Shown here: piece after piece, positions 1 through 34,331 of the stretch | Position numbering within the stretch: the first letter of the stretch is position 1 | Layout of the letters: each line of letters begins with the position of its first letter | Assembly: GCA_965202665.1 (NCBI GenBank) | Contig: OZ241841.1 | Span: 480,001 to 544,000, forward strand | Source of the DNA: Candidatus Spongiisociaceae bacterium | GTDB lineage: Bacteria; Actinomycetota; Acidimicrobiia; Spongiisociales; Spongiisociaceae | DNA: 64,000 bases | Direction of reading: 5' to 3' | Position numbers and translations under genes: made by a program | Notes under the pieces: model-generated | What the model saw: the letters and a program-made list of their open reading frames with translations, nothing else | The model's database searches: none | What the model was told of the DNA's origin: nothing

Positions 1-3000
1 CAGTATTTGGTGGGATCGTTGGCGTCGCATCCGACGGTTATTCCCCATTCGGCCATCAACTCGATGTTTGGTTCGTGGACGCTGCCGTCGTCGTCGCAGA
101 ACCGACCCTGGCAGGCCACCGGCGCGGGGGGCGCCACCGGAGCGACGGGTGCGGCGGGACCGGCCGGGGGCGGGGCCCCTCCTCCGGCGGGGGGCGGGGC
201 TCCTCCGCCTCCGCCTCCTCCACCACCTCCACCGGCGGCGGGGGGCGGCGCGGCCGGAGGCGGCGCGCTTCCACCCCCACCTCCTCCTCCTCCACCTCCT
301 CCTCCACCACCTCCTCCTCCACCACCTCCGGTGGGTGCGCTTGGTGTGCTGGTTGGCGGCGGCGGTGGGGGTGTGTATGTGTTGGCGGGAATGGTGAGGG
401 CGGCGGGGGTGATGGTAAATCCGTCGGCGGCGCCGGTTATGTTGATTCGTTCGGTTGGTTCTCTGGGTATTTGGTCGGTTTTGATGTTGATGGTGAAGGT
501 TCCGGAGCCGGATGATGCCGCGGGGCGGATATTTATGGTGGTGAGCTGGCTGGTGATTTGGTAGTCGTCGTTGGGGGTGGCGGTGCTGTCGGGGCCGGGG
601 ATGGTTATAGCCACGGAAGTGGCTTCAAACCGGGTGGTGGAGCCGTCCAGCCGGGCGGTGACGGTAACCCGACGGTTGGTTTCTCCTTCAGATAGGCTGG
701 CGGAGGGGCCGACAGTGAGGGTGATGCCGGTGGGTGGATCGTCGTTGTCTTTGATAGTAAATGCCACGGGTTCGATAGCGATCCCAGCGGAGGTTCCGGT
801 TATTTGTATGGTTTCATCCGGTTCGTCGATGCTGTCATCGGTGATGGGCAGGCTGAGGGTTCGGGTGGCGCTGTTTTGATTAGCGGAGATGGTCAGCGGG
901 GTGAGGGCGGGGGCGGTGTAGTCGTCTCCGGCGACGGCGGTTCCACCGAAGGCCAAGGTTACGGTGTGGGCGTTGGGAAGCGTTTCCGTGCCCGGGTAGG
1001 CGGCTTGCAGGGTTACGGACGTGCCGGTGTCCCCTTCGGTCGCTTCAGTTGTTGGGGTGAGGGTTAGCGTGACGGTCAGGTCGTCGTCGATGATGGTGAG
1101 GGTGTCTTGCGCGATAGTGAAACCGGCGAGCGTCCCACCGGCAACGGTTAGCGTTTCCGGCCCCTCGAAGGCGTCGTCGTTATATGTTCCGTCGGTTTTG
1201 AGCAGGAAAGTTGCGGTTCCGCTGGTTTCGTAGCCGGAAATTCGCACGTTGAAGGCATCCACCGTTTCATAGTCGGTTCCCTCAGTTGCTTCCCCAGTAG
1301 CCGTTTTGCCGACCACGATGGGTACGAAGGTAGCGGCGGAGCGGGTGGCGGTACCCTGGAAAGTGGCTACCACCCGCACCCGAATCTCTTGGTTTTCGTG
1401 GGCTTGGGTGAGGTGTTCCCCGCTGCTGTCGGCTCGGGTGCTGTGCAGGGAGAGGGTGACAGCGGTAGGAGGAGCGTCGTTATCGTTCAAAGCCAAAGCG
1501 ACGGCTACCGTGTGATAATCCACGTTGTTGATGGTTACTTGACTGCCGTTGATGACTATCCGTCTCGCCGGTTCATCGACGTTGTCGTCGTTCACCGTGA
1601 CTTGGATGTCGACGTAGCCGGTTTTAGTACCGGCGGGGATGGTGATGCCGGTGTCGTATCCGGAGGGAGTTGAGGCTGGTCGGGAGGGCCAAACTATCCG
1701 GTAGTCTTCCCGGTTCGTCCAAACGTTGTTGGAGTCCGCGGTGGCGGTACTGTCCTCGTCTATCTCCAAACCCACTACCACACCCCCGGTAGGGGCGTTC
1801 ACCGGCAGGGTAGCGGTAACCCGCACAGTGGTTGTTCCGCTGTTTTCCCCCAATGCGGACAGGGCGTTGTTGTTGGAGGGGTTGGTTAGGGCGAGGGTGA
1901 TGCCGCTGTCCGCAATGTTGATAGTCGTAGAATCGGAGGCGGCCGTTCCGGCGACGGTGGCCGAACCGCTGATTTTCACCGTTTCCGCAGTAGTTTCCGC
2001 GTCAGTATCAACCCGGGCGGTCAGCTGAAACGACCCCGTATGATGATGCTGCCCAGCGGGAATGCGGATAGTGAACGAGTTGCCCGTCTGGTCAGTGCAC
2101 ACATCTTCAGTCATCGACTGAGAACACGCTGTCGCCACCGTAGCCCCGTTGGTGTCCCCGGCCGCTATTGTTACCGTCACGTCAGTGTTGGTCGCCAGCG
2201 CGGAGGAGGTCGCTCCGGCGAACCCGGCGGTTACCGTTACGTTGTGGGCGCTGGCGCTTTCCGTCACCCTCCCCGGCGAGGCGGTTACCTCCAAAGCGGT
2301 GTCGCTGGCCCCGATAGTCAACGTGTCCGGGGTAATCCCCACGCCGCTGTTCACCGACGTCCCGGCGATCCTGAACGTTTCCGCCAGCTCGGTTATCGCA
2401 TCGTCTGTTATCGCTAATCCGGTTAGGTTGGTCCAGGCGCTTTGCGTTTGCCCGGCGGGGATGGACACCGTAACCGGGGTAGCGGGAGGAGTGAAATCGA
2501 TTCCCCCCGCCTCCGCCGACGCCGGCGACAAAGCCTCCGCAGTCACCCGCACCTGCAAAGCAGATCCTATATCGTTGCTGGTGGCGGTGGTGAACGCGGC
2601 CCGTACCCGCACCGCAACCGTTGAGCCCTCCGACAAAGTTTTCTGATTCCCGCTTTCCACACCGTCAGTATCCGCCGTCAGGGTCACTTCTAGATCATCG
2701 TCTGTGATAACCAGCGTCGTTCCACTAACCGCAAACCCCCCGGCGGTACCGTCGATGTCAATACTCTCCGCGTCCTCCGCGATGGCGTCCCCCGTAATCA
2801 GCAAACCAGACAGAGCAACCGCCGAACTACTAGTAGAACCAGCCGGGATGGTCACCGTCACCGCCGTACCCGGGGCGGTGAAATCCGTCGCTTCCGCGTT
2901 CTCTCCCGCCCCGAACGATAAGGTTACGTCGGTGGCTTGAGTGAGCGAGGAGCTGGACGCCCCGGCGAATGAGGCGGTAACGGTTACGGCTCCGGCGTTG

Positions 3001-6000
3001 GCGTCTCTTTCATCCACCGTGGACTGACTGAGGGCCAAAGTGATCGTTTCCAAAATCGGCAAATCAGCTACCGCGGGCAGATACCCGCCGGTAGCGGAAG
3101 CGGTGAAACGAATAGTCTCCGCCCCCTCCACCGTCCCATCATCCCGGGGAGTGAGCACAACATCCGCCGTCCCACTGGTTTGGCCGCTAGCGATGGTGAT
3201 AGTCGCAGTGCTACTCCCGCGGGTGTAATCCCCGGTCGCTCCCAAAGCGGCGGTTCCGCCCGCGGCCCCTACGTTTACCATCACCGTGGCGGACGATGAA
3301 GCGGCTGCGCCGAGGGTGGCTTTCACCCGCACCGTCTGCGCTCCCCCATCCTCGGTAATCCCCGACAAGGCCGGAGCGGCGCTTGTCGCTTGATGGAAGG
3401 ACAAAGTAACCGCCCGACCCGGATCGAAAACGCCCATCTGAGCGGACGCCACCTGACCTATAGAAGTAGAACCAGTCAGTTTCAAATACTCGATACCCTC
3501 AGTATCATCCCCATCGACGCGGGCCCGCAGCTGAAAAGAACCCGAACCGCTAACATCCCCGGCGGGGATACTGACCGTGAACTGATTGCCCGTCTGGTTA
3601 GTGCACACATCCGCTGTCATCGTCATCGTAGAACATACCGCGGTATGCACCGTCGCGCCGCTGGTGTCCCCCGACCCAACCGTTACCGTCACCGGAGTCG
3701 CCGCCGACAACACCGACGTAGCCCCCTGAAAACGGGCTGTCACCATTATCTGATGATCCGCCGTCCGCTCCACCACCTCCGCCGGAGACGCCGACAAAGA
3801 CACATCCACATCATCATCAACAATAGTCACCGTCTCCGCAACCACCGTCCCGCCTGTCGCGGTACCGGTGATGAGAAACGTCTCCGCTCCCTCCGCTATA
3901 GTATCATCCGCCACCGACAACCCGGTCAGATTCACCCAACCGCTCTGCAAGGCGGTTCCGACGGGCATAGTCACCGTCGCCGCCGCGCCCGGGGCGGTGA
4001 AATCAACACCCCCACCGGTCGCCGACACCGGAGAACCCTCCCCCGCAGTTACCTGAACCGTATACGCGGCGGTCAAGTCGTTGGTAGTAGCTGATGTGAA
4101 CCGGGCCCGCACCCGCACCGCCGCCTCCTCACCCTCCGGCAAAGTCTGCTGCACCCCAGAAGCGCTGTCCGTGTCCGCCGTTAAAGTAACCCCCAGATCA
4201 TCGTCGGTTATCGCCAGCTCCGTTCCGCTCACCACAAACCCATCCGCCGTCCCCCCAACATCGATCTTCTCCTCCCCCTCCGCAATCGAATCAGACGTAA
4301 TCAGCAAACCAGTCAAAGCAGTAGCGGAACTGGAGGTGGAAGAAGCCGGGATGCTCACCGTGATCGCCGTACCGGGAGCGGTGAAATCCGCCGCCTCCCC
4401 GTTCTCGCCCGCCCCGAACGACAACGTAACAACCGTCGCCCCCGTCAACGTCGAAGTAGACGCCCCCGCGAACGCCGCCGTCACCGACGCCGCCCCCGCG
4501 TTCGTTGCGCCCTCGCCTACCGATGACTGGCTGAGCGTCAACGTAATCTCTTCCATAATTTTCAAATCAACCGGAACAACCCTGAACCCAGTGGCGGAAC
4601 CGGTGAACTGAACCGTTTCCTCCCCCTCCGCCACCGTATCCGACAAAGGAGTGATCGTCACATCCGCCGTCCCGGAAGTCTCACCCGACGCAATCGTCAC
4701 ATCCACCGTCGCCGCCCCCCGGTCGTAGTCGCCGCTCGAACACGACCGGGACTGGCCGCTCCCCGTGCACGTCCCCAACGTCGCCGTACCCCCCGCCGCC
4801 CCCACATTCACGCTAATCGTCGTATCCGAACTCACCATCGCTCCCGCCGTAGCTTTCACCCGCACCGTCTCCGCCCCCCCACCCTCCGCTATCCCCCCCA
4901 AAGCCGCCTCCCCCGCCGTCGCCTCATGCAACGACAAATCCACCCGCGTCCCCACATCCACAATCGGCAAATCCACCGACTCCACCGCCACCGCCGCCCC
5001 GCCCACCGACGCCGACCCCGACAGCGTCAGATTCTCCCCCGACTCGCTCGTACTATCATCAGGAACCGTCACCATAAACGTGCCGCTCCCCGACGTCCCA
5101 CCCGCCGGAATAGACACCGTCATCTGATTATTAGTCAAACTCGTACAAGCATCCTGCCCGCTAGTTGTCGGACACGACGACCCCAACGAAGCCCCACCCG
5201 ACCCCGCCACCGACACCGTCACAGTTGTAGCAGTCGTCAGAATCGACGACGAACCCTTAAACCGGGCGGTCACCGTAACCTGCTGCGCCGTCGCCTGCTC
5301 ATCCACCGACAATGGAGACACCTCCAACTCAATATCAGCGTCATTATCATAAATCGTCAACGTGTCCGCCGTAGCGGATCCCAGCACCGACGACCCACCC
5401 ACCAAAAAGGTTTCCGGCCCCTCCACAATCGCATCATCGGTGATCGTCAACCCCGCCAACGTAGCCGAACCCGAAGCAGTAATACTCCGAGCCGGGAAAG
5501 AAATCGTATTCGCCGTGGACGGAGCATACGAAAAATCAGCCGTCGTCGCCTTCCCCGCCCCCGCCGGAGTCTCCGCCGCCGTCGACAGCGTCACTGCCGT
5601 CGCCGAAGACAACGCCGAAGACGTCGCGTTCCAAAAACTAGCCGACACCGACACCCCCGAACCGGAATCCCCCTCAGATATAATGTCTTGATTCCCCATA
5701 GCCTCACTATCGGTATCCACCGTCAAATCCACACGACTATTAGCATCCTTAACAGTTATCGGTGTCTTATACTGGGTCCAATCCGGAACGTCCACCCTAA
5801 GATAAAATATCTCGTCCGGCTCCACCTTCCCATCAGTTACCGTTGTTAAAGAAAGTCTAATAGGTGTGAAAGTTCCGGAAAGAGAGTTGGCGTTTATCGT
5901 TACAGACAAAGGATCATTCCAATGATCATGCTGATGATAGATATCGTGGGCACCACTTGTATCCGAGGTGCTTACCGTAGCTGTCCCGCTGTCAATTCTT

Positions 6001-6695
6001 ATTTGCTTATCCGAAATATTTTGGCTGTACGTCGAAGAAGTAGAAGCAGTGAACACACCGTTAGTCACCCCACCCACGATAGCCTTCGGCGTAGTAAAAT
6101 TGCCTTTACCATAGTTAATAAAACCCGAAGATTCACCTTCTTTTAGCTCCGACAATACTAAATAATTCGATGGTACAACTACCTTAACCGCCCGGTCCTG
6201 ATCGGTAATCGTCAAAGTAGCCGGAGCCACCCTATACCCAGAAGGGCCGGTGCCGGAGAAAATGATGGTCTCATGCTCTTCCGTAATCCTATCCGACCGC
6301 AAATCCATCGTAAAACTATTAGACGTAACACTCCTTTGATTCCTATGAATAGTTACATTCCAAGGCTCACGAGTACAGTAATCACCAGAATTGCAAACAT
6401 ATCTCGGAGGACGACCCGGATCAAACCTATTCACATTTATAGTCGCTCCTTGAGTGGCTGTACCGGATAACCTACTGATGCTAATCCGCAAATCGGAGGA
6501 CGGCGCCGAGGCCACCGACGCCTTCAACCGCAACACCTTCGAACCGCTGTCCTCCCCCACCGAAGTCACCGCGTTGCCCGAAGCATCAACCACACTGAAC
6601 GTAATAGTCGTCTGCGCCCCCACCACCGCAGGCGCGGCCGGCAACAGTGACAGGACCAAACCCGCCGCCAACGCCAACAGCCCCAGCCGTCGCAT
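1..6695 (-). CDS. Giant secreted Calx-beta-like repeat protein with C-terminal SLH-like domains, paralogue 1 (3' end runs off the window)
   Basis: Absent from the ORF track because no stop lies inside the window. Manual translation from ATG 6695 (GGAGG 7 nt upstream) gives MRRLGLLALAAGLVLSLLPAAPAVVGAQTTITFSVVD. The same frame at 65-2 reads IELMAEWGITVGCDANDPTKYC, the first SLH-like repeat of paralogues 4 and 5. DNA is colinear with paralogue 5. Confidence 0.88.
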   Translation of the reverse strand, partial: MRRLGLLALAAGLVLSLLPAAPAVVGAQTTITFSVVDASGNAVTSVGEDSGSKVLRLKASVASAPSSDLRISISRLSGTATQGATINVNRFDPGRPPRYVCNSGDYCTREPWNVTIHRNQRSVTSNSFTMDLRSDRITEEHETIIFSGTGPSGYRVAPATLTITDQDRAVKVVVPSNYLVLSELKEGESSGFINYGKGNFTTPKAIVGGVTNGVFTASTSSTYSQNISDKQIRIDSGTATVSTSDTSGAHDIYHQHDHWNDPLSVTINANSLSGTFTPIRLSLTTVTDGKVEPDEIFYLRVDVPDWTQYKTPITVKDANSRVDLTVDTDSEAMGNQDIISEGDSGSGVSVSASFWNATSSALSSATAVTLSTAAETPAGAGKATTADFSYAPSTANTISFPARSITASGSATLAGLTITDDAIVEGPETFLVGGSSVLGSATADTLTIYDNDADIELEVSPLSVDEQATAQQVTVTARFKGSSSILTTATTVTVSVAGSGGASLGSSCPTTSGQDACTSLTNNQMTVSIPAGGTSGSGTFMVTVPDDSTSESGENLTLSGSASVGGAAVAVESVDLPIVDVGTRVDLSLHEATAGEAALGGIAEGGGAETVRVKATAGAMVSSDTTISVNVGAAGGTATLGTCTGSGQSRSCSSGDYDRGAATVDVTIASGETSGTADVTITPLSDTVAEGEETVQFTGSATGFRVVPVDLKIMEEITLTLSQSSVGEGATNAGAASVTAAFAGASTSTLTGATVVTLSFGAGENGEAADFTAPGTAITVSIPASSTSSSATALTGLLITSDSIAEGEEKIDVGGTADGFVVSGTELAITDDDLGVTLTADTDSASGVQQTLPEGEEAAVRVRARFTSATTNDLTAAYTVQVTAGEGSPVSATGGGVDFTAPGAAATVTMPVGTALQSGWVNLTGLSVADDTIAEGAETFLITGTATGGTVVAETVTIVDDDVDVSLSASPAEVVERTADHQIMVTARFQGATSVLSAATPVTVTVGSGDTSGATVHTAVCSTMTMTADVCTNQTGNQFTVSIPAGDVSGSGSFQLRARVDGDDTEGIEYLKLTGSTSIGQVASAQMGVFDPGRAVTLSFHQATSAAPALSGITEDGGAQTVRVKATLGAAASSSATVMVNVGAAGGTAALGATGDYTRGSSTATITIASGQTSGTADVVLTPRDDGTVEGAETIRFTASATGGYLPAVADLPILETITLALSQSTVDERDANAGAVTVTASFAGASSSSLTQATDVTLSFGAGENAEATDFTAPGTAVTVTIPAGSTSSSAVALSGLLITGDAIAEDAESIDIDGTAGGFAVSGTTLVITDDDLEVTLTADTDGVESGNQKTLSEGSTVAVRVRAAFTTATSNDIGSALQVRVTAEALSPASAEAGGIDFTPPATPVTVSIPAGQTQSAWTNLTGLAITDDAITELAETFRIAGTSVNSGVGITPDTLTIGASDTALEVTASPGRVTESASAHNVTVTAGFAGATSSALATNTDVTVTIAAGDTNGATVATACSQSMTEDVCTDQTGNSFTIRIPAGQHHHTGSFQLTARVDTDAETTAETVKISGSATVAGTAASDSTTINIADSGITLALTNPSNNNALSALGENSGTTTVRVTATLPVNAPTGGVVVGLEIDEDSTATADSNNVWTNREDYRIVWPSRPASTPSGYDTGITIPAGTKTGYVDIQVTVNDDNVDEPARRIVINGSQVTINNVDYHTVAVALALNDNDAPPTAVTLSLHSTRADSSGEHLTQAHENQEIRVRVVATFQGTATRSAATFVPIVVGKTATGEATEGTDYETVDAFNVRISGYETSGTATFLLKTDGTYNDDAFEGPETLTVAGGTLAGFTIAQDTLTIIDDDLTVTLTLTPTTEATEGDTGTSVTLQAAYPGTETLPNAHTVTLAFGGTAVAGDDYTAPALTPLTISANQNSATRTLSLPITDDSIDEPDETIQITGTSAGIAIEPVAFTIKDNDDPPTGITLTVGPSASLSEGETNRRVTVTARLDGSTTRFEATSVAITIPGPDSTATPNDDYQITSQLTTINIRPAASSGSGTFTINIKTDQIPREPTERINITGAADGFTITPAALTIPANTYTPPPPPPTSTPSAPTGGGGGGGGGGGGGGGGGGGGSAPPPAAPPPAAGGGGGGGGGGGAPPPAGGGAPPPAGPAAPVAPVAPPAPVACQGRFCDDDGSVHEPNIELMAEWGITVGCDANDPTKY

Positions 6696-6746
6696 CACCC
6701 AACCTCCATCTTTCGCTTCCACCCGTATCAGGGCCGATTACGAAAA

Positions 6747-6774
6747 ACGCTACCCCCCCCCCCCAATTTGTCAA
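6747..6774 (-). promoter_or_regulatory. Sigma70/SigA-type promoter with G12 tract in the spacer (TTGACA-AATT-G12-TAGCGT, 16-nt spacer)
   Basis: Read directly: -35 at 6769-6774, C12 on + strand at 6753-6764, -10 at 6747-6752. Same element precedes all five paralogues. Confidence 0.85.
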
Positions 6775-6816: not shown

Positions 6817-9800
6817 TCAGTTCCCGCCGGTGGCGGCGGGGGCGAGGTTGACGGCGCGGACGAAGAAAGAGGCCATCTGCGCTCTGGTTACCGGTTTGTT
6901 CGGGCAGTAGTTGAGGGGGGTGGTGGCGCAACCTCTGGTTACGCCTCTGCCGTACATTCCTTCAATAGCCCGGATGATGGCGGGGTCTAGTCCTGTTGCG
7001 TCTTGGAAGAGGTTTTGGGGTTCTTCCACGGATTGGAGGTGGGGAAAGGCGGCGATCATCATGATGGCCATATCGGCCCGGGTTACCACACCGCCGGGGT
7101 TGAAGTTTCCGTCGGTGAGCGCGAAGGCGTTTACGGAGACGCCCCATTCGGCGTAGGTGCGGTACCAAGCATCGGCTGGAACATCGCTGATTTCTATGTC
7201 CTCGGGGGGTTGGATGGTCCAGCGTTGGGAGACGGCGCGGTGGAGGAAGGCGGCCATTTGCCTGCGGGTGATTTGGGCTCCGGGGCAGTATTTGGTGGAG
7301 TCTTCGGTGTCGCAGCCGAGGGTGATTCTCCATCCGGCTATCCGTTCGATGTTGGCTTCATGGACGCTGCCGTCGTCATCGCAGAACCGGCCCTGGCAGA
7401 CCGGTTCGGGGGGAGGCGCAGGGGCCGGCGGGGGCGCGGCGGGCGGCGGGGTGCCGCCTCCTCCCCCTCCGCCTCCACCTCCCCCGCCGCCGCCTCCTCC
7501 TCCGCCGCCGCCTCCGCTACCCCCTCCGCCGCTGGGGCTGGGGGGCGGGGCGTCGTTGGCGGGGATGGCGAGGGTGAGGGTGGCGGGGCTGGGGGTTAAA
7601 CCGGCTGGGGCGGTGGCGGTGAGAACGATTCGTTCAGCTCGTTCTGGGGTGTTGTCGTTGATGATGGTTATGGTCAGGTTGGGGGCCTGGGTTTGCCCGG
7701 CGGGAATGACCGCGGTCAGGTTGCTTATCCGATAGTCGGAGTTACGGATGGCGTCTCCGCCGAGGCTGAAGGTAACGGCGGTGTCGGTGGAAAGCGGGTT
7801 CGATCCGGCGGGGAAGCGGGTAGCGATAGCGGCGGTGGCGCCGGTAGTTTCAGCCACGCTGGTTCGGGAGAGGCTGATTTGGACGCTGGTGGGCGGAGCG
7901 TCGTTGTCTTTGATGGTGAGCGTAGCCGGTTCGACGGTGAACCCGGCCAGCGTTCCGATTATCTGCAAGGTTTCGTCCCCTTCGGCGATGTTGTCGTCGG
8001 CCACGGCGGACAGGGTGATGGTTTGAGGGGTAGCGCTGTTTTGGTTAGCGGAGATGGTCATATCAGCAAGCGCGGAGGCGGTGAAGTCAGACGAAGAAGC
8101 GGTACCCCCGTAGGCCAGACTGACGGTCTGGGAAGCACCTAAAGTTTCCGTACCCGGATAGGCGGCCCGCAGGCTTAGAGTGATGTTGGCGTCCCCTTCG
8201 GTCACCTCGTCTGGCGTGACGGCAAGAATAACAGTCAGGTCATCGTCGAGGATGGACAGCGTGTCCTCCCCGATAGTGAAACCGGCGAGGGTCCCCCCGG
8301 CGACGGTCAACGTTTCCGGCCCCTCAAAAGCCGCATCATTGTATGTTCCATCAGTTCTAAGAACAAAACTGCTAACCCCGCTGGATTGGTAAGCGGGAAT
8401 GGCAACAGTAAAGTCGCCTACCGTTTCGTAATCCGTTCCCTCAGTGGCCTCCCCGGAAGGCTTTCCGACCACAATCGGCACGAAAGTAGCGGCGGAACGG
8501 GTGGCGGTTCCTTGAAAAGCGGCCCGTACCCGCACGGTGGTGCTTGTTCCGCCTTCGGGTACTTGGGTCAGCTCCGCTCCTACCTCGCCGCCGTCATCTT
8601 CATAAAGAGAGACATCGATGACGGTAGGAGGAGAATCGTTGTCGTTTAGGGTCAAACTGGCATCTACCGTCTGGTAGGTGTCGGCGCTGATAGTTACATC
8701 ACTGCCTTCGAAAAGAATGGTCTTCGCCGGTTCGGCAACGCTGTCGTCATTTACAACAATGGTGACATCAGCGAAACTGTTGGTGCTTCCTTGGGCGATG
8801 GTGATGCCGGTGGAGTATCCGCCGGGAGTTCCGGTCGGTTTGGAGGGCCAAGTCACACGGTAGTCCTCCCCATCCGCCCATACGTTGTTAGAGGCCGCAA
8901 CGGCGGTACTGCCCTCGGCTATTCTCAGGCCTACTACCACTCCACCCGAGGGGACGGTGACCCCGGTGGGCAGGGTAGCGGTCACCCGTATAGTGGAGGA
9001 TCCGCTGTTCTCATCCAACGCAGACACGGAACTCCCGGACTTAGCCAGAGTGAGGGTGATGGCGCTGTCTACTACGTTGATAGTGTCAGTATCTGACTCC
9101 GATTCTCCAGCGACGGTGGCGCTTCCGGTTATTTTCACCGTTTCAGTGGTGGCTTCCTGTGTTCCATCGTCCCGGGCGGTCAGCTTGAATGTTCCCGTAT
9201 GGCTGACTTCCCCGGCGGGGATGGTAATGGTAAACGAGTTGCCCGTCTGATCGGTGCAAACATCGTTCTGACCGATCGCGGAGCACGACGCCGCCATCGT
9301 CGCCCCGTTGGAATCCCCGGCCGCTACCGCCACCGTCACATCGGTGCCCGCCGCTAAAGCGGAGGAGGACGCTCCCGCGAACCCGGCGGTTACCGTAACA
9401 TCATGGGCGGCGCCGCTTTCATACACCGTTCCCGGCGACGCGGTGACTTCCAAAGCGGTGTCGCTAGCCCCGATAGTCAACGTGTCCGAAGTTACCGTCA
9501 CGCCGCTTCTCCCAACAACAGTACCGGTGATGGCAAACGTTTCCGCCGCCTCGGTCTCCGCGTCGTCTGCAACCGACAAGCCCGACAAGTTCACCCAAGG
9601 GCTTGCCAGACTGCTTTGCCCGGCGGGGATGGACACCGTGACCGGCGTAGCGGGAGCGGTGAAATCAACACCACCGCCCGCCGCTGACTGCGGCGACGAA
9701 ACCCCGGCGGTGACGCGCACCTGCAGAGCGGATCCTAAATCGTTGGAAGTAGCAGATGTGAACCTGGCCTGTACCCGCACCGCCGCCGTTGCCCCCTCCG

Positions 9801-12378
9801 ACAGGGTCTTCTGCTCCCCGACCATCACATCCGTATCCGCTTTTACAGTCACCCCCAAATCATCATCGGCGATAACCAACGATGTTCCGCTGACCGAAAA
9901 CCCCGTCGCGCTGCCCCCAATGTCGATGCTCTCCGCTCCCTCCGCGATCGTATCCCCGTCAATTAGCAAACCGGTCAACGCCGTAGCCGAGCTGGAGATG
10001 GAACCAGCCGGGATGCTCAACGTCAACGCCGTGCCCGGAGCGGTGAAATCCGCCGCCTCCGCGTTCTCACCCTCGCTGAACGACAACGTAACAGACGTGG
10101 CCCCGGTCAGCTCCGAAGTAGACGCCCCCGCAAACGCGGCCATCACCGACGCCGCACCCGCGTTTGTCGCTCCCTCGCCCACCGACGACGAGCTGAGCGT
10201 CAACTCTATCATTTCCGTGATTTTCAAATCCGCGGGAATAACCGTAAACCCGGCAGCGGAACCGGCGAACCGAATCGTTTCCTCCCCCTCCGCCACCGTG
10301 TCCGACAGGGGAGTAATGGTCACATCCGCGGTTGCCGACGTATCACCCGACGGGATCACCAAGTCCACCGTTTCCGCTCCCCGGTCGTAGTCGCCGCTCG
10401 AACAAGACCGGGACTGGCCGCTCCCCGAACACACCCCCACCGTCGCCGTCCCACCCATAGCACCCACGTCTACGACGACGGACGTCTGCGAAGTCACCGC
10501 GGTTTCGGCGGTGGCTTTCACCCGCACCCTCCGCGCCCCCCCACCCTCCGCTACCCCCGCCAACGCCGCCTCCCCGCTCGCCGCCTCATGCAAAGACAAA
10601 TCCACCCGCGTCCCCGCATCGATAATCGGCAAATCCACCGACTCCACCACCACATCCGACCCGCCCACCGACGCCGTACCCGACACCACCATCTTCTCCC
10701 CCGACTCACCCGTACCATCATCAAGAACCGTCACCGTAAACGTTTCGCTCGCCGACGTCCCACCCGCCGGAATGGAAATCGTGGTCGCATTACCCGTCAA
10801 ACTGGTACAAGCATCATCCCCGCCAGACACCGGACACGACGACGACAAAGCCGCCCCGCCCTCCCCCGCCACCGTCACCGCCACATCAGTAGCAGCTGTC
10901 AGAATAGACGACGACCCCTTAAACCGAGCCGTCACCCTAACCTGCTGCGCCCCCGCCTGCTCCTCCACCGACGACGGAGACACCTCCAACTCAACATCAG
11001 CGTCATCATCATAAATAGTCAACACAGACGACCGAGCGTCCCCCAACGCCGACGACCCACCCACCAAAAAAGTCTCCGGCCCCTCCACCACCGCATCATC
11101 GGTGATCGTCAACCCCGCCAACGTCGCCGTACCCGACGCAGTCACACTCCTAGCCGGAAAAGAAATCGTATTCGCCGTCGACGGAGCATACGAAAAATCA
11201 GCCGCCGCCGCCTTCCCCGCCCCCGCCGGAGTCTGCGCCTCCGCCGACAACGTCACCACCGTCGCCGAAGAAATCACCGACGACGTCGCATTCCAAAAAG
11301 CAGCCGCCACCGACACCCCCGAACCAGACGCCCCCTCCTCCAACACAGCCTGATTCCCATCTTCGCCACCATCGGTATCCACCGTAAAACCCACCCGATT
11401 CGCATCCTTGACAGTAAGCGGGGTTGGGAACGCCGTCCAACCCATCGGAACACCTTGATTTAGCCTAACGTAAAATATCTCATCCGGCTCCACCACCCTA
11501 TCTCTCATAACCCTCAGACCTATATAAGAGATACCACCACCCACACCACTGTGAGTAGACTGAGAAACAGTATTGGCGGGTATGGTCATCCGCTGAATCT
11601 CGTCCCAATTATGTAATTGGTAGACATCGGTGGGACTGCCTTTCGAATCTTTCTGTATAGCGGTCCCGCTATCGAAATACAATTGCATATCCGCCAAAGC
11701 TTGGCCGTATGTCGAAGAAGTAGACTGGGTGAACACACCATTCGTCACCCCACCCAATACAGCCGTCGGTGCAGGTTCATATATATGACCATCGGGTCTA
11801 TTCATAGATTCACCCTCTTCCTTCTCCGGCAAAACCTCATACGACATGTTCACCTTAATCGCCCGATCCTGATCGGTGATAGTCAAAGTAGTCCCAGTCA
11901 CCGTATACCCAGACTTAGAAGCGGTACCGGAGAAGGTGATAGTCTCATGCTCCTCCGTAATCCTATCCGCCCGCGTAAAAAGTTGCCAAGGGATTATATT
12001 ATAACCGATCGTCTGACCCACACCAATAGTAACATTAAAATTAGTAGATGAGTCAATACACGCATCACCACCTCGACACTCCATCCTAGTTTCCAGTAGG
12101 GTAACGGTCCTGTACACATTATTTACGGTAGCGGTCCCACCCCGAGTAACCGTCACCGTCACACTAGAAGTCACCGCCGAAGGCACCGACGCCCTCAAAA
12201 AAAGGTACTTACCCGAAGTAGCACTGTCCTCCCCCACCGAAGTGATCGCGGCTCTGGCGCTCGTCGCCTCCACCACGCTGAGCGTAATCGCCGTCTGCGC
12301 CCCCACCGCCGCCGGCGCAACCGGCAACACCGACCACACCAACCCCGCCGCCAACGACAACACCGCCAACCGCCGCAT
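6817..12378 (-). CDS. Giant secreted Calx-beta-like repeat/SLH protein, paralogue 2 (about 1853 aa, short form)
   Basis: ORF 6817..12429; start moved to ATG 12378 (MRRLAVLSLAAGLVWS, GGAGG upstream). Repeated D-x3-EG-x-ET...L-x-I-x-DDD motifs typical of Calx-beta domains. Poly-Pro/Gly linker. C-terminal repeats with TRRQMA/TRADMA/TRAQMA, SLH-like. Confidence 0.9.
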   Translation of the reverse strand: MRRLAVLSLAAGLVWSVLPVAPAAVGAQTAITLSVVEATSARAAITSVGEDSATSGKYLFLRASVPSAVTSSVTVTVTRGGTATVNNVYRTVTLLETRMECRGGDACIDSSTNFNVTIGVGQTIGYNIIPWQLFTRADRITEEHETITFSGTASKSGYTVTGTTLTITDQDRAIKVNMSYEVLPEKEEGESMNRPDGHIYEPAPTAVLGGVTNGVFTQSTSSTYGQALADMQLYFDSGTAIQKDSKGSPTDVYQLHNWDEIQRMTIPANTVSQSTHSGVGGGISYIGLRVMRDRVVEPDEIFYVRLNQGVPMGWTAFPTPLTVKDANRVGFTVDTDGGEDGNQAVLEEGASGSGVSVAAAFWNATSSVISSATVVTLSAEAQTPAGAGKAAAADFSYAPSTANTISFPARSVTASGTATLAGLTITDDAVVEGPETFLVGGSSALGDARSSVLTIYDDDADVELEVSPSSVEEQAGAQQVRVTARFKGSSSILTAATDVAVTVAGEGGAALSSSCPVSGGDDACTSLTGNATTISIPAGGTSASETFTVTVLDDGTGESGEKMVVSGTASVGGSDVVVESVDLPIIDAGTRVDLSLHEAASGEAALAGVAEGGGARRVRVKATAETAVTSQTSVVVDVGAMGGTATVGVCSGSGQSRSCSSGDYDRGAETVDLVIPSGDTSATADVTITPLSDTVAEGEETIRFAGSAAGFTVIPADLKITEMIELTLSSSSVGEGATNAGAASVMAAFAGASTSELTGATSVTLSFSEGENAEAADFTAPGTALTLSIPAGSISSSATALTGLLIDGDTIAEGAESIDIGGSATGFSVSGTSLVIADDDLGVTVKADTDVMVGEQKTLSEGATAAVRVQARFTSATSNDLGSALQVRVTAGVSSPQSAAGGGVDFTAPATPVTVSIPAGQSSLASPWVNLSGLSVADDAETEAAETFAITGTVVGRSGVTVTSDTLTIGASDTALEVTASPGTVYESGAAHDVTVTAGFAGASSSALAAGTDVTVAVAAGDSNGATMAASCSAIGQNDVCTDQTGNSFTITIPAGEVSHTGTFKLTARDDGTQEATTETVKITGSATVAGESESDTDTINVVDSAITLTLAKSGSSVSALDENSGSSTIRVTATLPTGVTVPSGGVVVGLRIAEGSTAVAASNNVWADGEDYRVTWPSKPTGTPGGYSTGITIAQGSTNSFADVTIVVNDDSVAEPAKTILFEGSDVTISADTYQTVDASLTLNDNDSPPTVIDVSLYEDDGGEVGAELTQVPEGGTSTTVRVRAAFQGTATRSAATFVPIVVGKPSGEATEGTDYETVGDFTVAIPAYQSSGVSSFVLRTDGTYNDAAFEGPETLTVAGGTLAGFTIGEDTLSILDDDLTVILAVTPDEVTEGDANITLSLRAAYPGTETLGASQTVSLAYGGTASSSDFTASALADMTISANQNSATPQTITLSAVADDNIAEGDETLQIIGTLAGFTVEPATLTIKDNDAPPTSVQISLSRTSVAETTGATAAIATRFPAGSNPLSTDTAVTFSLGGDAIRNSDYRISNLTAVIPAGQTQAPNLTITIINDNTPERAERIVLTATAPAGLTPSPATLTLAIPANDAPPPSPSGGGGSGGGGGGGGGGGGGGGGGGGGGTPPPAAPPPAPAPPPEPVCQGRFCDDDGSVHEANIERIAGWRITLGCDTEDSTKYCPGAQITRRQMAAFLHRAVSQRWTIQPPEDIEISDVPADAWYRTYAEWGVSVNAFALTDGNFNPGGVVTRADMAIMMIAAFPHLQSVEEPQNLFQDATGLDPAIIRAIEGMYGRGVTRGCATTPLNYCPNKPVTRAQMASFFVRAVNLAPAATGGN

Positions 12379-12429
12379 CACCCAACCTCCAATCCTCCAC
12401 ACGGCGCCGCGAACCGGCACCCTACGCAA

Positions 12430-12456
12430 ACGCTACCCCCCCCCCCAATATGTCAA
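12430..12456 (-). promoter_or_regulatory. Promoter with G11 tract (TTGACA-TATT-G11-TAGCGT, 15-nt spacer)
   Basis: -35 at 12451-12456, C11 at 12436-12446, -10 at 12430-12435. Confidence 0.85.
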
Positions 12457-12597: not shown

Positions 12598-15500
12598 TTA
12601 TGAGCCGGCGGCGGCGGGGGCGAGGTTGACGGCGCGGACGAAGAAGGAGGCCATCTGCGCTCTGGTTACGGGTTTGTTGGGGCAGTAGTTGAGGGGGGTG
12701 GTGGTGCAGCCTCTGGTTACGCTTCTGCCGTACATTCCTTCGATGGCCCGTATTATCGTCGGGTCTAGTCCTGTTGCGTCTTGGAAGAGGTTTTGGGGTT
12801 CTTCTACGGGTTGGAGGTGGGGGAAGGCGGCGATCATCATGATGGCCATGTCGGCTCGGGTTACTACTCCGCCGGGGTTGAAGTTTCCGTCGGTGAGTTC
12901 GAAGGCGTTTATGGAGACGCCCCATTCGGCGTAGGTGCGGTACCAGGCGTCTTGGGATACGTCGTTGATTTCTATGTTTTGGGGGTTTTGGATGGTCCAG
13001 CGTTGGCTGACGGCGCGGTGGAGGAAGGCGGCCATTTGCCTGCGGGTGATTTGGGCTCCGGGGCAGTATTTGGTGGAGTCGGTGGCGTCGCAGCCGAGGG
13101 TGATTCTCCATCCGGCTATCCGTTCGATGTTGGCTTCATGGACGCTGCCGTCGTCGTCGCAGAATCGTCCTTGGCATGCCGGTTCGGGGGGAGGCGCGGG
13201 GGCGGGTGGGGGCGCGGTCGGCGGGGCGGCCGGGGGCGGTGGGGCTGGGGCGCCGCCGCCTCCTCCTCCGCCGCCACCTCCTCCGCCGCCACCTCCCCCG
13301 CCGCCACCTCCGCCTCCGGCGGGCGGGTTTCCTCCGCTGGGAGCGGGGGGTGGGGCGGGGGGTGGGGCGTCGTTGTCGGTGATGGTGAGGGTGAGGGTGG
13401 AGGGGTTGGGGGTTAATCCGGCTGGGGTGGCGGCGGTGAGGACGATTCGTTCGTTTGGTTCGTCGTCGGTGTCATGGAGGATGGTTATGGTGAGGTTGGG
13501 GGCTTGGGTTTGCCCGGCGGGGATGACCGCGGTCAGGCTGTTTATTCGGTAGTCGGAGTTGCGTTGGGCGTTTCCGCTGAGGGTGAAAGCGACGGCGGTG
13601 TCGGTGGGGAGCGTGTCGGACCCGGCGGGTAAGCGGGTGGCGATGGTAGCGGTAGCGCCGGTAGTTTCAGCCAGGTTGTTGGCGGAGAGGCTGATTTGGA
13701 TGCCGGCGGGCCGGTCGTCGTCGTCTTTGATAGTGAAGACGGCGGGGGTGACGGCGTATCCGGCGACCGTTCCGGTTATTTGCAAGGTTTCGTCTCCCTC
13801 GGCAATGCTGTCTTCGGTGGTTTGCAGGGCGAAGGTGGGGAGGGTGGCGCTGTTTTGGTTGGCGGGGATGGTCAGAGAGGTAAGAGAGGGGGCGGTGTAG
13901 TCAGCTCCGGCGACGGCGTCTCCTCCGAGGGCCAGGTTTACGGTTTGGGAAGTGGTGAGGGCCGCGCCCGGGTAGGCGGCTCGCAGGGTTGCGGCCGCGA
14001 CCGCGTCGCCTTCGTTCACCTCGTCTGGGGTGAGGGTGAGGGTGATGGTTTCGTCGTCGATGATGGTGAGGGTGTCTTGCCCGATAGTGAAACCGGCGAG
14101 GGTTCCGCCGGCGACGGTCAACGTTTCGTTCCCTTCAAGGTTTTCGTCGTCATATGTTCCGTCGGTTTTGAGGGTGAAAGTGCCGGTTCCGCTGGTTTGG
14201 TAGGGGTCGATCACCAAGTTGAAGGCGCTTACCGTTTGATAATCGGTTCCTGGTGTGGATTCCCCGGCGGCTTTACCGACCACAATCGGCACGGAAGTTG
14301 CGGCGGAGCGGGTGACGGTTCCCTGAAAAGAAGCCCGCACCCACACTACATCTTCGCCGCCTTCAGGTACTTGGGTAAGCGCCGCCCCGATGTCGCCTTC
14401 GTCGTCGCGGTGGAGGGCGAGGTCGATGTTGGCGGGCGGGTCGTCGTTGTCGCTGATAGTAAGCGCGGCGGCTACCGCGTGGTAGACGACGCTGCTGATG
14501 GTTACCGTGCTGCCGTTGACGGTTATGGTTTTGTCCGGTTCGTCTACGCTGTCGTCGTTTACCGTGATGGTAATATCGGCGGCGCCGCTGGTTTGCCCCT
14601 GCGCGATGGTGACGCCGGTGGCGTATCCATCAGGAGTGGAGGCTGGTTTGGGGGGCAGGCTGATCCGGTAGTCTTCTTGTTCCGTCCAGACGTTGTCGGA
14701 GTCCGCAGTAGCGCTACCGGCTATGTTCAGGCCTACAACCACCCCGCCGGAGGGGACGGTCGTACCGGTGGGGATGGTGGCGGTCACCCGTATGGTGGCA
14801 GACGCGCTGCTCTCGGACAACGTAGATATGGCGTTGTTGTTGGAGGCGTTGGTTAGGGAAAGGGTGATGCCGCTGTCTACAACGTTGATAGTGTCGGAAT
14901 CCGATTCTGATTCTCCGGCGACGGTGGCCGAGCCGGTTATTTTCACCTTTTCCACGCTTTCCGGCGTGTTGTCGTCCCGGGCGGTCAGCTGGAACGTTCC
15001 CGTATGGCTGGTTTGCCCGGCGGGGATGGTGACGGTAAACGAGTTGCCCGTCTGATCGGTGCAAACATCGTTCTGTCCGATCGCGGAGCACGACGCCGCT
15101 ACCGTCGCTGGGTCGGTGTCCCCGGCCGCTACCGCTACCGTCACCGCGGTGCCCGCCGACAAAGCCGATGAGGTCGCTCCGGCGAACCCGGCGGTCACCC
15201 TTATCGTATGAGCAGAACCGCTTTCATGCACCGTCCCCGGCGACGCGGCAACCTCCAAAGCGGTGTCGCTGGCCCCGATAGTCAACGTATCCGAAGTTAT
15301 CGTCACGTCGCTTCTCCCGGAAACGGTACCGGTGATGGCAAAGGTCTCCGCCGGTTCAGTCACAGTGTCGTCCGTAACCGCAAGTCCTGTCAGGTTCGCC
15401 CATGCGCTTTCCAGGCTGCTTGTACCGGTGGGAATGGACACCGTAACCGGCGTAGCGGGAGCGGTGAAATCTGTTCCCCCGCCCACCGCCGACTCCGGCG

Positions 15501-18500
15501 ACGAAACCCCGGCGGCGACGCGCACCTGCAGAGCGGAACCTAAATCATTGGAGGTAGCGGTGGTGAACTTGGCCCGTACCCGCACCGCGGGGGTGGTTCC
15601 TTCCGACAGGTTTTTTTGCTCCCCGTTCATTACGCTGTCCGTATCCGCCTCTACGGTCACTCCCAAATCGTCGTCTGCTATCTCCAGCTCGGTTCCGCTG
15701 ACTCGGAAGCCCCCCGCCGTGCCTCCGATGTCGATCTTCTCCGCTCCCTCGGCGATGGCATCCCCCGTGATCAGCAAACCGGTCAAGGCGGTAGCCGAGC
15801 TGGAGACGGAACCAGCGGGGATGCTCACCGTTAGCGCGGCGCCCGGGGCGGTGAAATCCGCCGCTTCCGCGTCCTCACCCGCCCCGAAAGTCAACGTGAC
15901 ATCCGTTGCTTGGGTGAGTAAGGAGCTAGACGCCCCAGCAAAGGAAGCCGTCACCGACGCCGCTCCCGCGTTTCCCGCTCCCTCACCCACCGAAGACCGG
16001 CTGACCGTCAACTGGATGGCTTCAGTGATGGACAGGTCGGCGGAGTCGGGCAGATACCCAGTAGCGGAGGCGGTGAAACGAATAGTTTCCGCCCCCTCGG
16101 CTGTTCCATCATCCCGGGGAGTGAGCACAACGTCGGCTGTTCCATCGGCTTGGTTGCTGTTGATGGTGATAGTCGCGGTGGCGCTCCCGCGGGTGTAATC
16201 CCCAGTGGATCCCAGGGTGGCGGTCCCGCCTGCGGCCCCCACGTTTACGGTCACTGTGGTAGCCGACGCGGCGTTTCCGCCGAGGGTGGCTTTCACCCGT
16301 ACCGTCTGCGCGCCCCCGTCCTCGGTAATACCCGACAGGGCAGGGTCGCCGCTGGAGGCCTGATGGAAGGACAAAGTAATCTGCCGGTCTGGGTCGTAAA
16401 CGCCCATCTGGGCGGGAGCTACCGAGCCTATGGAAGTAGCACCGGTGAGCTTCAAGTATTCGATATCCTCGGTGTTATCCTCGTCGACGCGGGCTCGCAT
16501 TTGGAAGGAACCCGAGGCGTTGACGTCCCCGGCGGGGATGCTGATCGTAAACTGATTGTTCGTTTGGTCGGTGCACACATCCGCCGATGACGAAAAAGGA
16601 CACGCCGCCGTCTGTACCCCTGCCCAGTTGGTGTCCGCTGGGGCGACTGTCACTGTTACCGGAGTCGCCGCCGACAACACCGAAGTGGCCCCCTGGAAAC
16701 GGGCGGTTACCGTAATCTGATGCGCCGCCGCTTGCTCCACCACCTCCGCCGGAGACGCCGACAAAGTCACGTCAACGTCATCATCAACGATAGTCACCGT
16801 GTCCGAAGCCACCGTCGCGCCGCCCGTTGCGGTACCGGTGACGAGAAACGTCTCCGACCCTTCCGCTACCGTATCATCCGCTACCGACAACCCGGTGAGA
16901 TCCGCCCAGCTGCTTTGCAAGCTGGTCGACCCGGTTGGTATAGACAACACCACCGCCGTACCGGGAGCTGTGAAATCAACACCCCCTCCAGTCGCCGACG
17001 CCGGCGACGAAGCCCCCGCGGTGACGCTTATTTGCAGAGCGGATCCTAAACCATTGGAAGTGGCGCTAGTGAAAGCGGCACGCACCCGCACCGCCGCCGC
17101 CTCACCCTCCGACAGGTTTCTCTGCACCCCGGACGCGCTGTCCGTGTCCACCGTCAAAGTAACCCCCATATCATCGTCGGTTATCGCCAACTCCGTTCCG
17201 CTCACCCCAAACCCCTCCGCCGTCCCCCCAACATCGATTTTCTCCTCCCCTTCCGCGATCGCATCCCCCGTAATAAGCAAACCAGACAAAGCGGTAGCGG
17301 AACTAGAAGTGGAAAAAGCCGGGATGCTCAACGTCAACGCCGGGGCGGTGAAATCCTGAGCCTCCGCGTTCTCGCCCGCCCCAAACGACAACGTAACAAC
17401 CGTCGCCCCGCTCAACTCTGAAGTAGTCGCCCCCGCGAAGGCGGCCGTCACCGTCGCCGCTCCCGCGTTCGTTGCGCCCTCGCCAACCGATGACTGGCTA
17501 AGCGTCAACGTAATCTCTTCCGTGATTTTCAAATCAACGGGAAACACCGTGAACCCGGAAGCGGAACCGGTAAATCGAACAGTTTCCTCCCCCTCCGCCA
17601 CCGTATCCGACAAAGGAGTGATCGTCACATCCGCCGTCCCGGAAGTCTCACCCGACGCAATCGTCACATCCACCGTCTCCGCCCCCCGATCATAATCACC
17701 GCTCGCGCAAGACCGGGACTGACCGCTCCCCGAGCACGTCCCCAAAGTCGCCGTCCCCCCCGCCGCCCCCACGTTCACGCTAATGGTCGTGTCCGAGGTC
17801 ACCGCCGCCCCCGCAGTAGCCTTCACCCGCACCGTCTCCGCCCCTCCATCCTCCGCTATCCCAGCCAACGCCGCCTCCCCGCTCGTCGCCTCATGCAACG
17901 ACAAATCCACCCGCGTCCCCGCGTCGATAATCGGCAAATCCGCCGACTCCACCGCCACCGCTGTCCCACCCACCGACGCCGCCCCCGACACCGTCAACTT
18001 CTCCCCCGTCTCGCTCGTACTATCATCAGAAACCGTCACCATAAACGTGTCGCTCCCCGACGTCGCACCCGCCGGAATAGACACCGTCATCTGATTATTA
18101 GTCAAACTAGTACAAGCATCGTTCGTATTCGCCGGACACCCCAAAGAAGCCCCGCCCGCCCCCGCCACCGTCACCGCCACGTCAGTAGCCGACGTCAAAA
18201 CCGACGACGAACCCTTAAACCGAGCCGTCACCGTAACCTCCTGCGACCCCGCCTGCTCAGACACCGCCAACGGAGACACCTCCAACTCAATATCAGCATC
18301 GTTGTCATAAATCGTCAACGTGTCCGCCGTAGCGGATCCCAGCGCCGACGACCCACCCACCAGAAAAGTTTCCGGCCCCTCCACTATCGCGTCGTCGGTG
18401 ATCGTCAACCCCGCCAACGTAGCCGTATCCGAAGGAGTGACGCTTCTAGCCGGGAAAGAAATCGTATTCGCCGTGGACGGAGCATACGTGAAATCAGCCG

Positions 18501-19668: not shown

Positions 19669-19724
19669 CACCCAACCTCCATCTTCGCTTCCGGTCCAAC
19701 CCGTAAACGGGACCGATGCGAAAA

Positions 19725-19752
19725 ACGCTACCCCCCCCCCCCAATTTGTCAA
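19725..19752 (-). promoter_or_regulatory. Promoter with G12 tract (TTGACA-AATT-G12-TAGCGT, 16-nt spacer)
   Basis: -35 at 19747-19752, C12 at 19731-19742, -10 at 19725-19730. Confidence 0.85.
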
Positions 19753-27040: not shown

Positions 27041-27067
27041 ACGCTACCCCCCCCCCCAATTTGTCAA
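27041..27067 (-). promoter_or_regulatory. Promoter with G11 tract (TTGACA-AATT-G11-TAGCGT, 15-nt spacer)
   Basis: -35 at 27062-27067, C11 at 27047-27057, -10 at 27041-27046. Confidence 0.85.
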
Positions 27068-34246: not shown

Positions 34247-34303
34247 CACCCAACCTCCATCCTTCGCTTCCGGCCCAACCCGTATCAGGACCGACTACGA
34301 GAA

Positions 34304-34331
34304 ACGCTACCCCCCCCCCCCAATTTGTCAA
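34304..34331 (-). promoter_or_regulatory. Promoter with G12 tract (TTGACA-AATT-G12-TAGCGT, 16-nt spacer)
   Basis: -35 at 34326-34331, C12 at 34310-34321, -10 at 34304-34309. Confidence 0.85.

Follow-up and report, generated by a model that had tools for sequence, protein, structure and literature searches.

A 5'-to-3' keto/amino codon gradient in duplicated genes of a Candidatus Spongiisociaceae bacterium, with a candidate origin in repair-filtered gene conversion

We analysed a 64,000-nucleotide stretch of a Candidatus Spongiisociaceae genome (hereafter the window) and found that its giant surface-protein genes pass from G/T-ending codons in their 5' part to C/A-ending codons in their 3' part, a gradient that is confined to duplicated DNA. 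Blocks of homology have a G/T-rich 5' edge and a C/A-rich 3' edge whichever strand is read, and this polarity rule is the new element here. Judged from the sequences, the gradient is probably the footprint of NucS-filtered gene conversion between copies, with a strand geometry that is inferred. We also lean, on balance, towards the wider view that NucS drives a strand-specific, keto/amino-biased gene conversion, a previously undescribed force. It would polarise every recombining repeat of NucS-type genomes from 5' G/T to 3' C/A, recode EF-Tu, alter amino acids and be the cause of actinobacterial GRINS, including those of Streptomyces polyketide synthases. In MutS genomes, where C:C is left unrepaired, the effect would be weaker and take the form of G over C. 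The skew would then map conversion blocks, tract lengths and strand from one genome.

Codon gradient in the surface-protein genes of the window

The features considered here all lie on the minus strand and are as follows (window coordinates).

6817–12381, minus: family A surface-protein gene of 1,854 codons, with signal peptide, hypervariable head, Calx-beta-like repeats, Gly/Pro linker and C-terminal SLH region; carries the gradient
12430–12456, minus: promoter-like TTGACA / G11 / TAGCGT, spacer 15 nt, close to the 5' homology edge; 24 sites of this kind genome-wide
11347–12234, minus: hypervariable head, about codons 50–345; low paralogue identity, low GC3 and weaker skew (0.68–0.82)
7537–11346, minus: main block of homology; third-position G+T goes from 1.00 (5' edge) to 0.13 (3' edge)
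11221–11340, minus: G/T-ending stretch, 40/40 codons
7561–7680, minus: C/A-ending stretch, 36/40 codons
7402–7548, minus: Gly/Pro linker of variable length; homology break with partial reset (0.30)
6820–7401, minus: SLH cell-wall-anchor region; C/A-rich (0.17–0.22)
1–6698, minus: paralogue 1, 2,392 codons, extending past the window start; same gradient, promoter 6747–6774
12598–19671, minus: paralogue 3, 2,357 codons; same gradient, promoter 19725–19752
19835–26983, minus: paralogue 4, 2,382 codons; same gradient, promoter 27041–27067
27107–34249, minus: paralogue 5, 2,380 codons; same gradient, promoter 34304–34331

Along the gene at 6817–12381, third-position G+T (GT3) falls from 1.00 to 0.13 while GC stays roughly steady (logistic slope over the whole gene 3.76 ± 0.21, z = 18). 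A recount confirmed both stretches singled out in the original prediction: all 40 codons at 11340–11221 end in G or T (31 G, 9 T), and 36 of 40 at 7680–7561 end in C or A (28 C, 8 A). The saw-tooth that it had described held up as well, being seen in five of five units of positions 1–34,300 and absent from the remainder of the 64-kb window. Its placing of the reset at each promoter did not survive. GT3 is 0.85 in the signal peptide and 0.68–0.82 in the hypervariable head before it reaches 1.00, and declines to 0.13 ahead of the Gly/Pro linker; the peak thus comes downstream of the hypervariable region (codon ~350), not at the promoter. The resets lie instead at homology edges, and three family A paralogues of 4.4k aa carry two teeth each. 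Partial resets in family A coincide with homology breaks, less crisply in the 4.4k genes.

The same amino acids change codon along the genes. In 11 genes of 1.8–2.4k aa, the 5'-part counts were 312/23 for Ala GCG/GCC and 285/62 for Thr ACG/ACC, and the 3'-part counts 27/258 and 45/537, respectively. These counts bear out the synonymous switch that had been proposed, although the shift is not purely synonymous: from 5' to 3', G+T goes from 0.87 to 0.19 at codon position 3 and from 0.67 to 0.44 at position 1, with position 2 nearly flat, and along the repeat region Val goes down and Thr goes up. The T share of NNY codons falls from 0.78 to 0.07 and the G share of NNR codons from 0.88 to 0.13; at four-fold sites G/C moves from 0.68/0.07 to 0.14/0.58 and T/A from 0.22/0.03 to 0.04/0.17. 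The T/C, G/A, G/C and T/A exchanges all shift together, each by about 3 to 4 log-odds units, and GC3 is about 0.7 throughout the main block (mostly 0.6–0.8) while G+T swings from 0.9 to 0.1. The axis of the skew is keto/amino. GC-biased gene conversion is a heteroduplex repair bias that mimics selection at silent sites; unlike it, the skew here lies on the keto/amino rather than the strong/weak axis, is strand-specific, leaves GC unchanged and takes its sign from block position, and the rise in GC that it brings where conversion is frequent is not seen, GC3 remaining near 0.7 along the main block.

The host genome is a single 2.77-Mb contig (64% GC, 94% complete) with a replication origin near 1.33–1.35 Mb, confirmed by dnaA. 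Its 24 promoters of the TTGACA / G11-13 / TAGCGT-like type serve 14 family A genes, eight family B genes and two others. The gradient occurs in 14 of 14 family A genes, on both replichores and with the same gene-relative sign. Family B proteins (about 1,250 aa) have a conserved N-terminal half, and the conserved part of their genes is G/T-rich and the part beyond it neutral; the two non-family genes with poly-G promoters are flat. The poly-G tracts are 11–13 nt long and differ in length among paralogues. Phase-variable surface-protein families of the Mycoplasma vlp type have homopolymer promoter spacers, and the families here, which may be phase-variable too, are alike in their many paralogues, the G11-13 between the −35 and −10 boxes and the hypervariable head. 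This likeness accounts for many recombining copies, not for the codon gradient. The family ORF pieces of four further genomes behave alike in 31 of 34 cases (two of the pieces belonging to one gene): the 5' end is rich in G/T, and G+T declines wherever the piece includes the 3' part; the exceptions are two wavy pieces from a 10.6k-aa gene and one reversed gene (genome G013), the 5' end of which is C/A-rich. Since the gradient recurs in these four genomes, an assembly artefact is unlikely.

Confinement to duplicated DNA and polarity of homology blocks

We further compared repeated with unique genes across the genome. Among genes of at least 800 aa, a drop in GT3 of at least 0.2 from the first to the last third was seen in none of 72 unique genes and in 23 of 39 repeated ones. 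Of the 43 genes in which some 100-codon window reaches at least 0.80, 37 are repeated, against 149 of 1,711 genes genome-wide. The skew is likewise present in an identical tuf pair (GT3 0.96), where it begins at the ATG and flips to C/A in the final codons; the adjoining fusA, rpoB and ribosomal-protein genes have values of 0.38–0.57. Copies of IS481-like and ISL3-like elements and a recA pair are also skewed. There are counter-cases: the repeated gene at genome position 462494 rises rather than falls, two single-copy genes at 637571–640443 are 0.82–0.91 G/T, and two lagging-strand copies (599683 and 2264933) are not G/T-rich on the leading strand.

Three simple causes were rejected. Highly expressed neighbours of tuf are flat, which speaks against high expression; the 72 long unique genes without a gradient speak against gene length; and no consistent flanking skew was found at 51 non-family poly-G tracts, while two of the 24 genes with poly-G promoters are flat. 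Confinement to repeats, one of two options in the original prediction, therefore stood and confinement to poly-G promoters did not. Its wording that the polarity flips in every giant gene was too broad, as very long genes of 8k, 10k and 12.7k aa drop by only −0.09, 0.16 and 0.07; equally, the gradient is not a property of every long gene.

The dependence on copies bears on two adaptive readings that had been put forward. In one, selection keeps a gene's internal repeats dissimilar and so limits deletions. The internal repeats of the 4.4k genes are just 65–73% identical at the DNA level, and the gradient must reduce their identity, which may be a side benefit of it. We nevertheless consider this reading extremely improbable: tuf, recA and the IS copies have no internal repeats, and the sign of the gradient, which this reading would leave arbitrary, is shared by 31 of the 34 ORF pieces in the four further genomes.

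The other reading is selection for long-range pairing between the 5' and 3' parts of the mRNA. The 5.65-kb transcript is predicted to fold into a nested rod in which 33.5% of pairs span more than 1 kb. Its energy is −2479 kcal/mol, compared with −2409 after a local and −2433 after a global shuffle (single shuffles that give no z-score), and strong helices exceed local codon shuffles (386 vs 271 ± 21; 500 vs 375 ± 23; 183 vs 165 ± 24). A local shuffle, though, yields a similar rod (27.5% of pairs over 1 kb), the top helices lack a common register, and cognate 5'/3' halves pair no better than non-cognate ones in 12 genes (residual −0.025 ± 0.048). Moreover, tuf and family B have no C/A-rich partner region, and pairing leaves the dependence on copy number or NucS unexplained. 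Selection for pairing is thus scarcely plausible, and the predicted rod is read as a consequence of the gradient. The helix excess over codon shuffles is partly unaccounted for. Specific pairing through inverted repeats was also rejected, the lists consisting of low-complexity G/C matches.

On the leading strand, blocks with partners in both replication senses fall from a G+T of 0.615 to 0.40 (17 of 18), same-sense blocks have a mean of 0.57 and unique DNA of 0.515. Counted per family, a fall is seen in four of four mixed families, and values above background in 16 of 19 same-sense ones. Copies of tuf, recA and family B are all in one replication sense and are G/T-rich with a late fall; family A and the IS elements have copies in both senses and a crossover near the middle. 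Ordinary replication-strand skew has its sign fixed by the replichore and is constant along it, and the gradient is neither. The earlier argument that replication skew is insufficient thus holds for it as sole cause, but replication direction does shift the baseline: unique genes average 0.503 on the leading and 0.455 on the lagging strand, and lagging-strand copies are on average more C/A-rich (intercepts 0.00–0.18 vs 0.14–0.54 on the leading strand).

NucS-filtered conversion, tuf and one-sign runs

One earlier option, a position-dependent and strand-biased mutation or conversion process, gained support, specifically as biased conversion. In the mechanism that we propose, a nascent 3' end would copy an ectopic paralogue and then re-anneal at the home locus, and NucS would act on such ectopic conversion intermediates. 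Donor G or T facing resident G or T would be erased by NucS and A:C, C:C and A:A left, and the new strand would retain donor A or C only. Synthesis would run 5' to 3' from starting points within the homology block. Same-strand tracts would predominate near the 3' edge of the block and make it C/A-rich, and opposite-strand tracts near the 5' edge and make it G/T-rich; the 3' edge would gain A/C on either strand because synthesis runs 5' to 3' in a bounded block. As the rule would be valid on either strand, each block should carry one saw-tooth. If lagging-polarity tracts were in surplus, the leading strand would be shifted towards G/T, and the more C/A-rich lagging copies are as expected from such a surplus. 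The pattern would have arisen incidentally and would not be an adaptation of the surface-protein genes.

In the passages of the NucS papers drawn on here, the enzyme prefers G-T, G-G and T-T with weak or no A-C activity (PMC8228993), and in M. smegmatis the mismatches removed from an incoming oligonucleotide are dG-dG, dG-dT and dT-dT only, with a patch of about 6 bp (PMC11551744). This is exactly the keto/amino filter that the mechanism would require, the host enzyme's specificity being taken by analogy from the M. smegmatis, C. glutamicum and archaeal enzymes. As in the model, the repair in these passages is of the short-patch type, is directed against the incoming strand and extends to homeologous recombination; the long-term base composition of repeats is not treated in them (PMC11551744, PMC8228993). 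The host genome has an intact nucS (NucS_C and NucS_N both above cut-off in one open frame), and neither MutS_I nor MutL was found in its one contig (94% complete).

The tuf genes allowed a comparison across genomes, which are kin rather than independent. With NucS and two tuf copies, all 44 genomes had GT3 of 0.63–0.98 and a falling slope; with NucS and one tuf copy found, eight of eight lay at 0.37–0.44. Where NucS was not found, 23 of 23 genomes with one copy lay at 0.39–0.56, and four of four with duplicated tuf at 0.40–0.54, this last and decisive cell being small (four genomes in three families, one of them 85% complete). Both copies were seen in G031 and G194; G028 has two contig-end fragments, and G039 is only a probable case, unpublished. 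The table omits G003 and G017, in which the single full copy ends a contig and the copy number is ambiguous (both are skewed, at 0.87 and 0.97); a 64%-identity third tuf of G025, on a 1.2-kb contig (0.28); G136 (frameshifted); and G174, G171, G037 and others without a full-length match. Identity was 99.4–100% in the 10 pairs compared, and relatives show the tooth in miniature (e.g., 1.00 to 0.20). The slope had a median of 0.42 (range 0.03–2.35); a predicted fixed slope of 1 was rejected, as it holds in some lineages only.

We also scanned the genome collection for a G/T-ending motif, by which the resulting set is therefore ascertained; among the 80 of 120 loci listed, most records that share the host tuf pattern are labelled Acidimicrobiia. 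Fourteen genomes not labelled Actinomycetota were checked for NucS and MutS, six of them with too little tuf to profile. All five profiled NucS-positive, MutS-negative genomes outside the Acidimicrobiia-labelled records (two Trueperaceae, three loosely labelled) were raised in both G and T. Three of three MutS-positive genomes, one of which has a weak NucS-like hit, were mainly raised in G over C (four-fold T 0.01–0.14). MutS misses C-C mismatches in the passages of PMC11551744 used here, and the G-over-C pattern of this ascertained set of three fits that property.

Differences between paralogues provide a second type of evidence, since filtered conversion would be expected to produce tracts in which all differences between two copies point the same way. 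In 28 pairs of the 2.4k class, neighbouring silent differences had the same sign in 2,589 of 3,931 cases (2,154 expected), and there were 50 pure runs of at least 12 against 4.2 expected, the pairs being non-independent; in four disjoint pairs, 346 of 484 neighbours agreed (57% expected, z = 7.2). One run comprises 26 differences across 378 nt, with the amino base in the lagging copy every time. The signature replicates weakly in relatives and elsewhere: z was 2.7, 1.0 and 0.1 in genomes G001, G009 and G004, 1.4 in family B and 0.1 in recA, and the gene at 6817–12381 reached 2.3 against its closest paralogue, with single-copy controls at 0.6–1.1. No overall depletion of G/T and A/C differences was seen (0.16–0.24 in paralogues vs 0.14 in controls); these were thinner in pure blocks of the 2.4k class only, not the 4.4k class.

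We further simulated the process in abstract form. With the filter, eight copies and tracts of ~300 codons, G+T went from 0.92 to 0.03 at a GC of 0.69 and a divergence of 0.2, runs were reproduced, and the same-sign fraction was 0.78 (observed 0.66); 100-codon tracts gave no smooth gradient. A positional mutation bias with unbiased conversion gave a gradient by construction, a same-sign fraction of 0.48–0.53 and no runs. Within its assumptions, the simulation shows that the filter model would be sufficient, not that it is true.

The runs also bear on mutational origins of the skew. In recombination-linked mutagenesis, error-prone ectopic repair would leave A:C-type errors that NucS misses, or tautomer-type errors, a suggestion of the GRINS authors, and the bias would lie in new mutations and not in the sorting of alleles already present. 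This predicts the same polarity, restriction to recombining repeats and association with NucS, and error-prone replication has been proposed for GRINS (PMC8256042, in part). We regard it as unlikely. Pure-run alleles are common to other paralogues, both being shared in 550 of 774 cases and both private in none (74% shared outside runs); concordance is no lower for C/G and A/T transversions than for transitions (0.68; null 0.52–0.56), which tautomer errors do not lead one to expect; and repair from the sister copy ought to affect unique genes as well.

Deamination of exposed single strands (C to T, A to G), in R-loops at poly-G promoters or during resection, would suit the dominance of transitions among paralogue differences and the G/T-rich 5' part of 22 of 24 genes with poly-G promoters. 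It is highly improbable given that single-copy highly expressed genes, two poly-G promoter genes and the other 51 poly-G tracts are flat or without consistent skew, that GC3 does not fall where the skew is extreme, that transversions carry the same sign, and that the simulated positional mutation bias produced no runs.

RecA prefers G/T-rich single strands. A ratchet in which G/T-rich 3' tails invade or win more often, with no per-base repair filter, agrees with the observation that the G/T-rich strands are those with 3'-ended tails directed into the block. Pure one-sign runs are not among its predictions, and the four of four NucS-lacking duplicated tuf pairs, which presumably have RecA, show no skew; we hold it to be very unlikely.

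Relation to GRINS and biological meaning

GRINS are duplicated regions of more than 500 bp and more than 80% identity with correlated GC and TA skews (reported r = 0.70); the skew is strongest at third positions and is tied to gene conversion, and the elements are common in actinobacteria, often in transposases, with G+T and C+A stretches on one strand (PMC8256042, in the passages used). The genes studied here are GRINS by the published definition, agreeing with it in four compositional respects. As to duplication, 97% of the gene at 6817–12381 is covered by alignments of at least 80% to other copies (83–89% identity; by BLAST rather than the GRINS authors' window pipeline). The five units have GC skews of 0.21–0.22 and TA skews of 0.17–0.21. 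Outside the repeats, the window still shows 0.13 and 0.18, which makes the GRINS threshold for TA a lax one. The two skews correlate at r = 0.72–0.79 in the five units vs 0.23 in the rest of the window, and the third-position bias with amino-acid effects is present. Alleles shared among paralogues and the one-sign tracts would suit gene conversion that may still be at work between the copies.

There are also differences. GRINS are about 1 kb long, whereas the gradients here are monotonic over 5–7 kb and lie in surface-protein genes; and the GRINS authors, as far as these passages go, regard them as elements promoting conversion, whereas the skew is read here as a conversion product. In 2021 the authors stated the mechanism to be unknown and both signs on one strand to be unexplained, and the passages used contain no polarity rule, replication-sense effect or NucS (PMC8256042). 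GRINS have been reported in phyla that mostly use MutS (PMC8256042, in part), so NucS cannot be the sole route. No polarity rule or NucS–GRINS link appears in the parts consulted of PMC4494060, PMC10394414 and PMC11109965, and a search of the openly accessible literature found none. New here are the polarity rule for block edges, the offset by replication sense, the one-sign runs between paralogues, the simulation and the contrast with MutS.

Concerted evolution of tufA/tufB produces near-identical pairs, as in the tuf genes here. To our knowledge its model includes no compositional bias, and we found no literature on such a bias in tufA/tufB.

The repair-filter model offers a mechanism for GRINS that covers the occurrence of both signs on a strand and specifies, position by position, which sign to expect, and a single knockout in laboratory actinobacteria could test it. 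If true, biased gene conversion would have a second axis alongside GC bias, and recombining repeats would become readable from composition alone. When tuf, transposases, polyketide synthases or antigen families of these lineages show extreme codon usage, it can then resemble selection or foreign origin while being neutral and incidental.

Codon-ending polarity in duplicated and single-copy genes

The two recA copies of the source genome are 95.7% identical to each other and share one third-position profile, in which G/T-ending codons come first and C/A-ending codons follow.

recA copies (source genome positions)
132501-133679, leading strand, recA copy
1276072-1277244, leading strand, recA copy

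The saw-tooth was absent from the ordinary single-copy genes at 34375-64000 of the window, which encode GAPDH, MoeA, a nucleotidyl transferase, a sugar transferase, an M17 peptidase, an SLH-SpoIID protein and a glycosyltransferase. Elsewhere in the source genome, two single-copy genes at 637571-640443 (plus strand) have third-position G+T of 0.82 and 0.91, climbing toward a G33 run at 640404; this high G+T is not accounted for by the model in which the skew is a footprint of NucS-filtered gene conversion between duplicated copies. At L040, a locus in comparison genome G013, the gene for a 2,925-aa SLH protein lacks a poly-G promoter and has a C/A-rich 5' end, the opposite of the family A surface-protein paralogues.

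Poly-C tracts on the coding strand were also observed directly upstream of other giant secreted-protein genes (1.5k-12.7k aa), and the skew is wavy rather than monotonic in the three largest of these.

Giant secreted-protein genes with upstream poly-C (source genome positions)
1141275-1172471
1652242
2167872
2390217

tuf in comparison genomes and probable assembly artefacts

Four-fold sites of tuf, the EF-Tu gene, carry more G than C, with T scarcely enriched, at L185, L190, L210 and L220, all in MutS-bearing genomes; this enrichment is possibly a MutS (C:C) variant of the bias. A third tuf in G025 (L041, contig 1) lies on a 1.2-kb contig, is just 64% identical to that genome's own pair and is likely contamination. 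At the start of the source contig, the paralogue with its promoter at 7174 (minus strand) loses its reading frame in the final codons, at the contig junction; faulty circularisation of the assembly is the probable reason.

Poly-G promoters

Family A promoters place a G tract between the -35 and -10 boxes.

Poly-G promoters (window positions)
6747-6774
12430-12456
19725-19752
27041-27067
34304-34331

Spacers between the boxes are 15-16 nt within the window, and the 24 sites found genome-wide have tracts of 11-13 nt. Across the genome, 75 G tracts reach at least 11 nt, one has 9 and none has 10. These promoter tracts point to likely phase variation of the surface-protein repertoire.

At 846205 (minus strand) of the source genome, a family-type poly-G promoter also precedes an unrelated 512-aa gene. 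By eye, the product of this gene looks like a DNA methyltransferase, and this putative methylase gene may itself be phase-variable.
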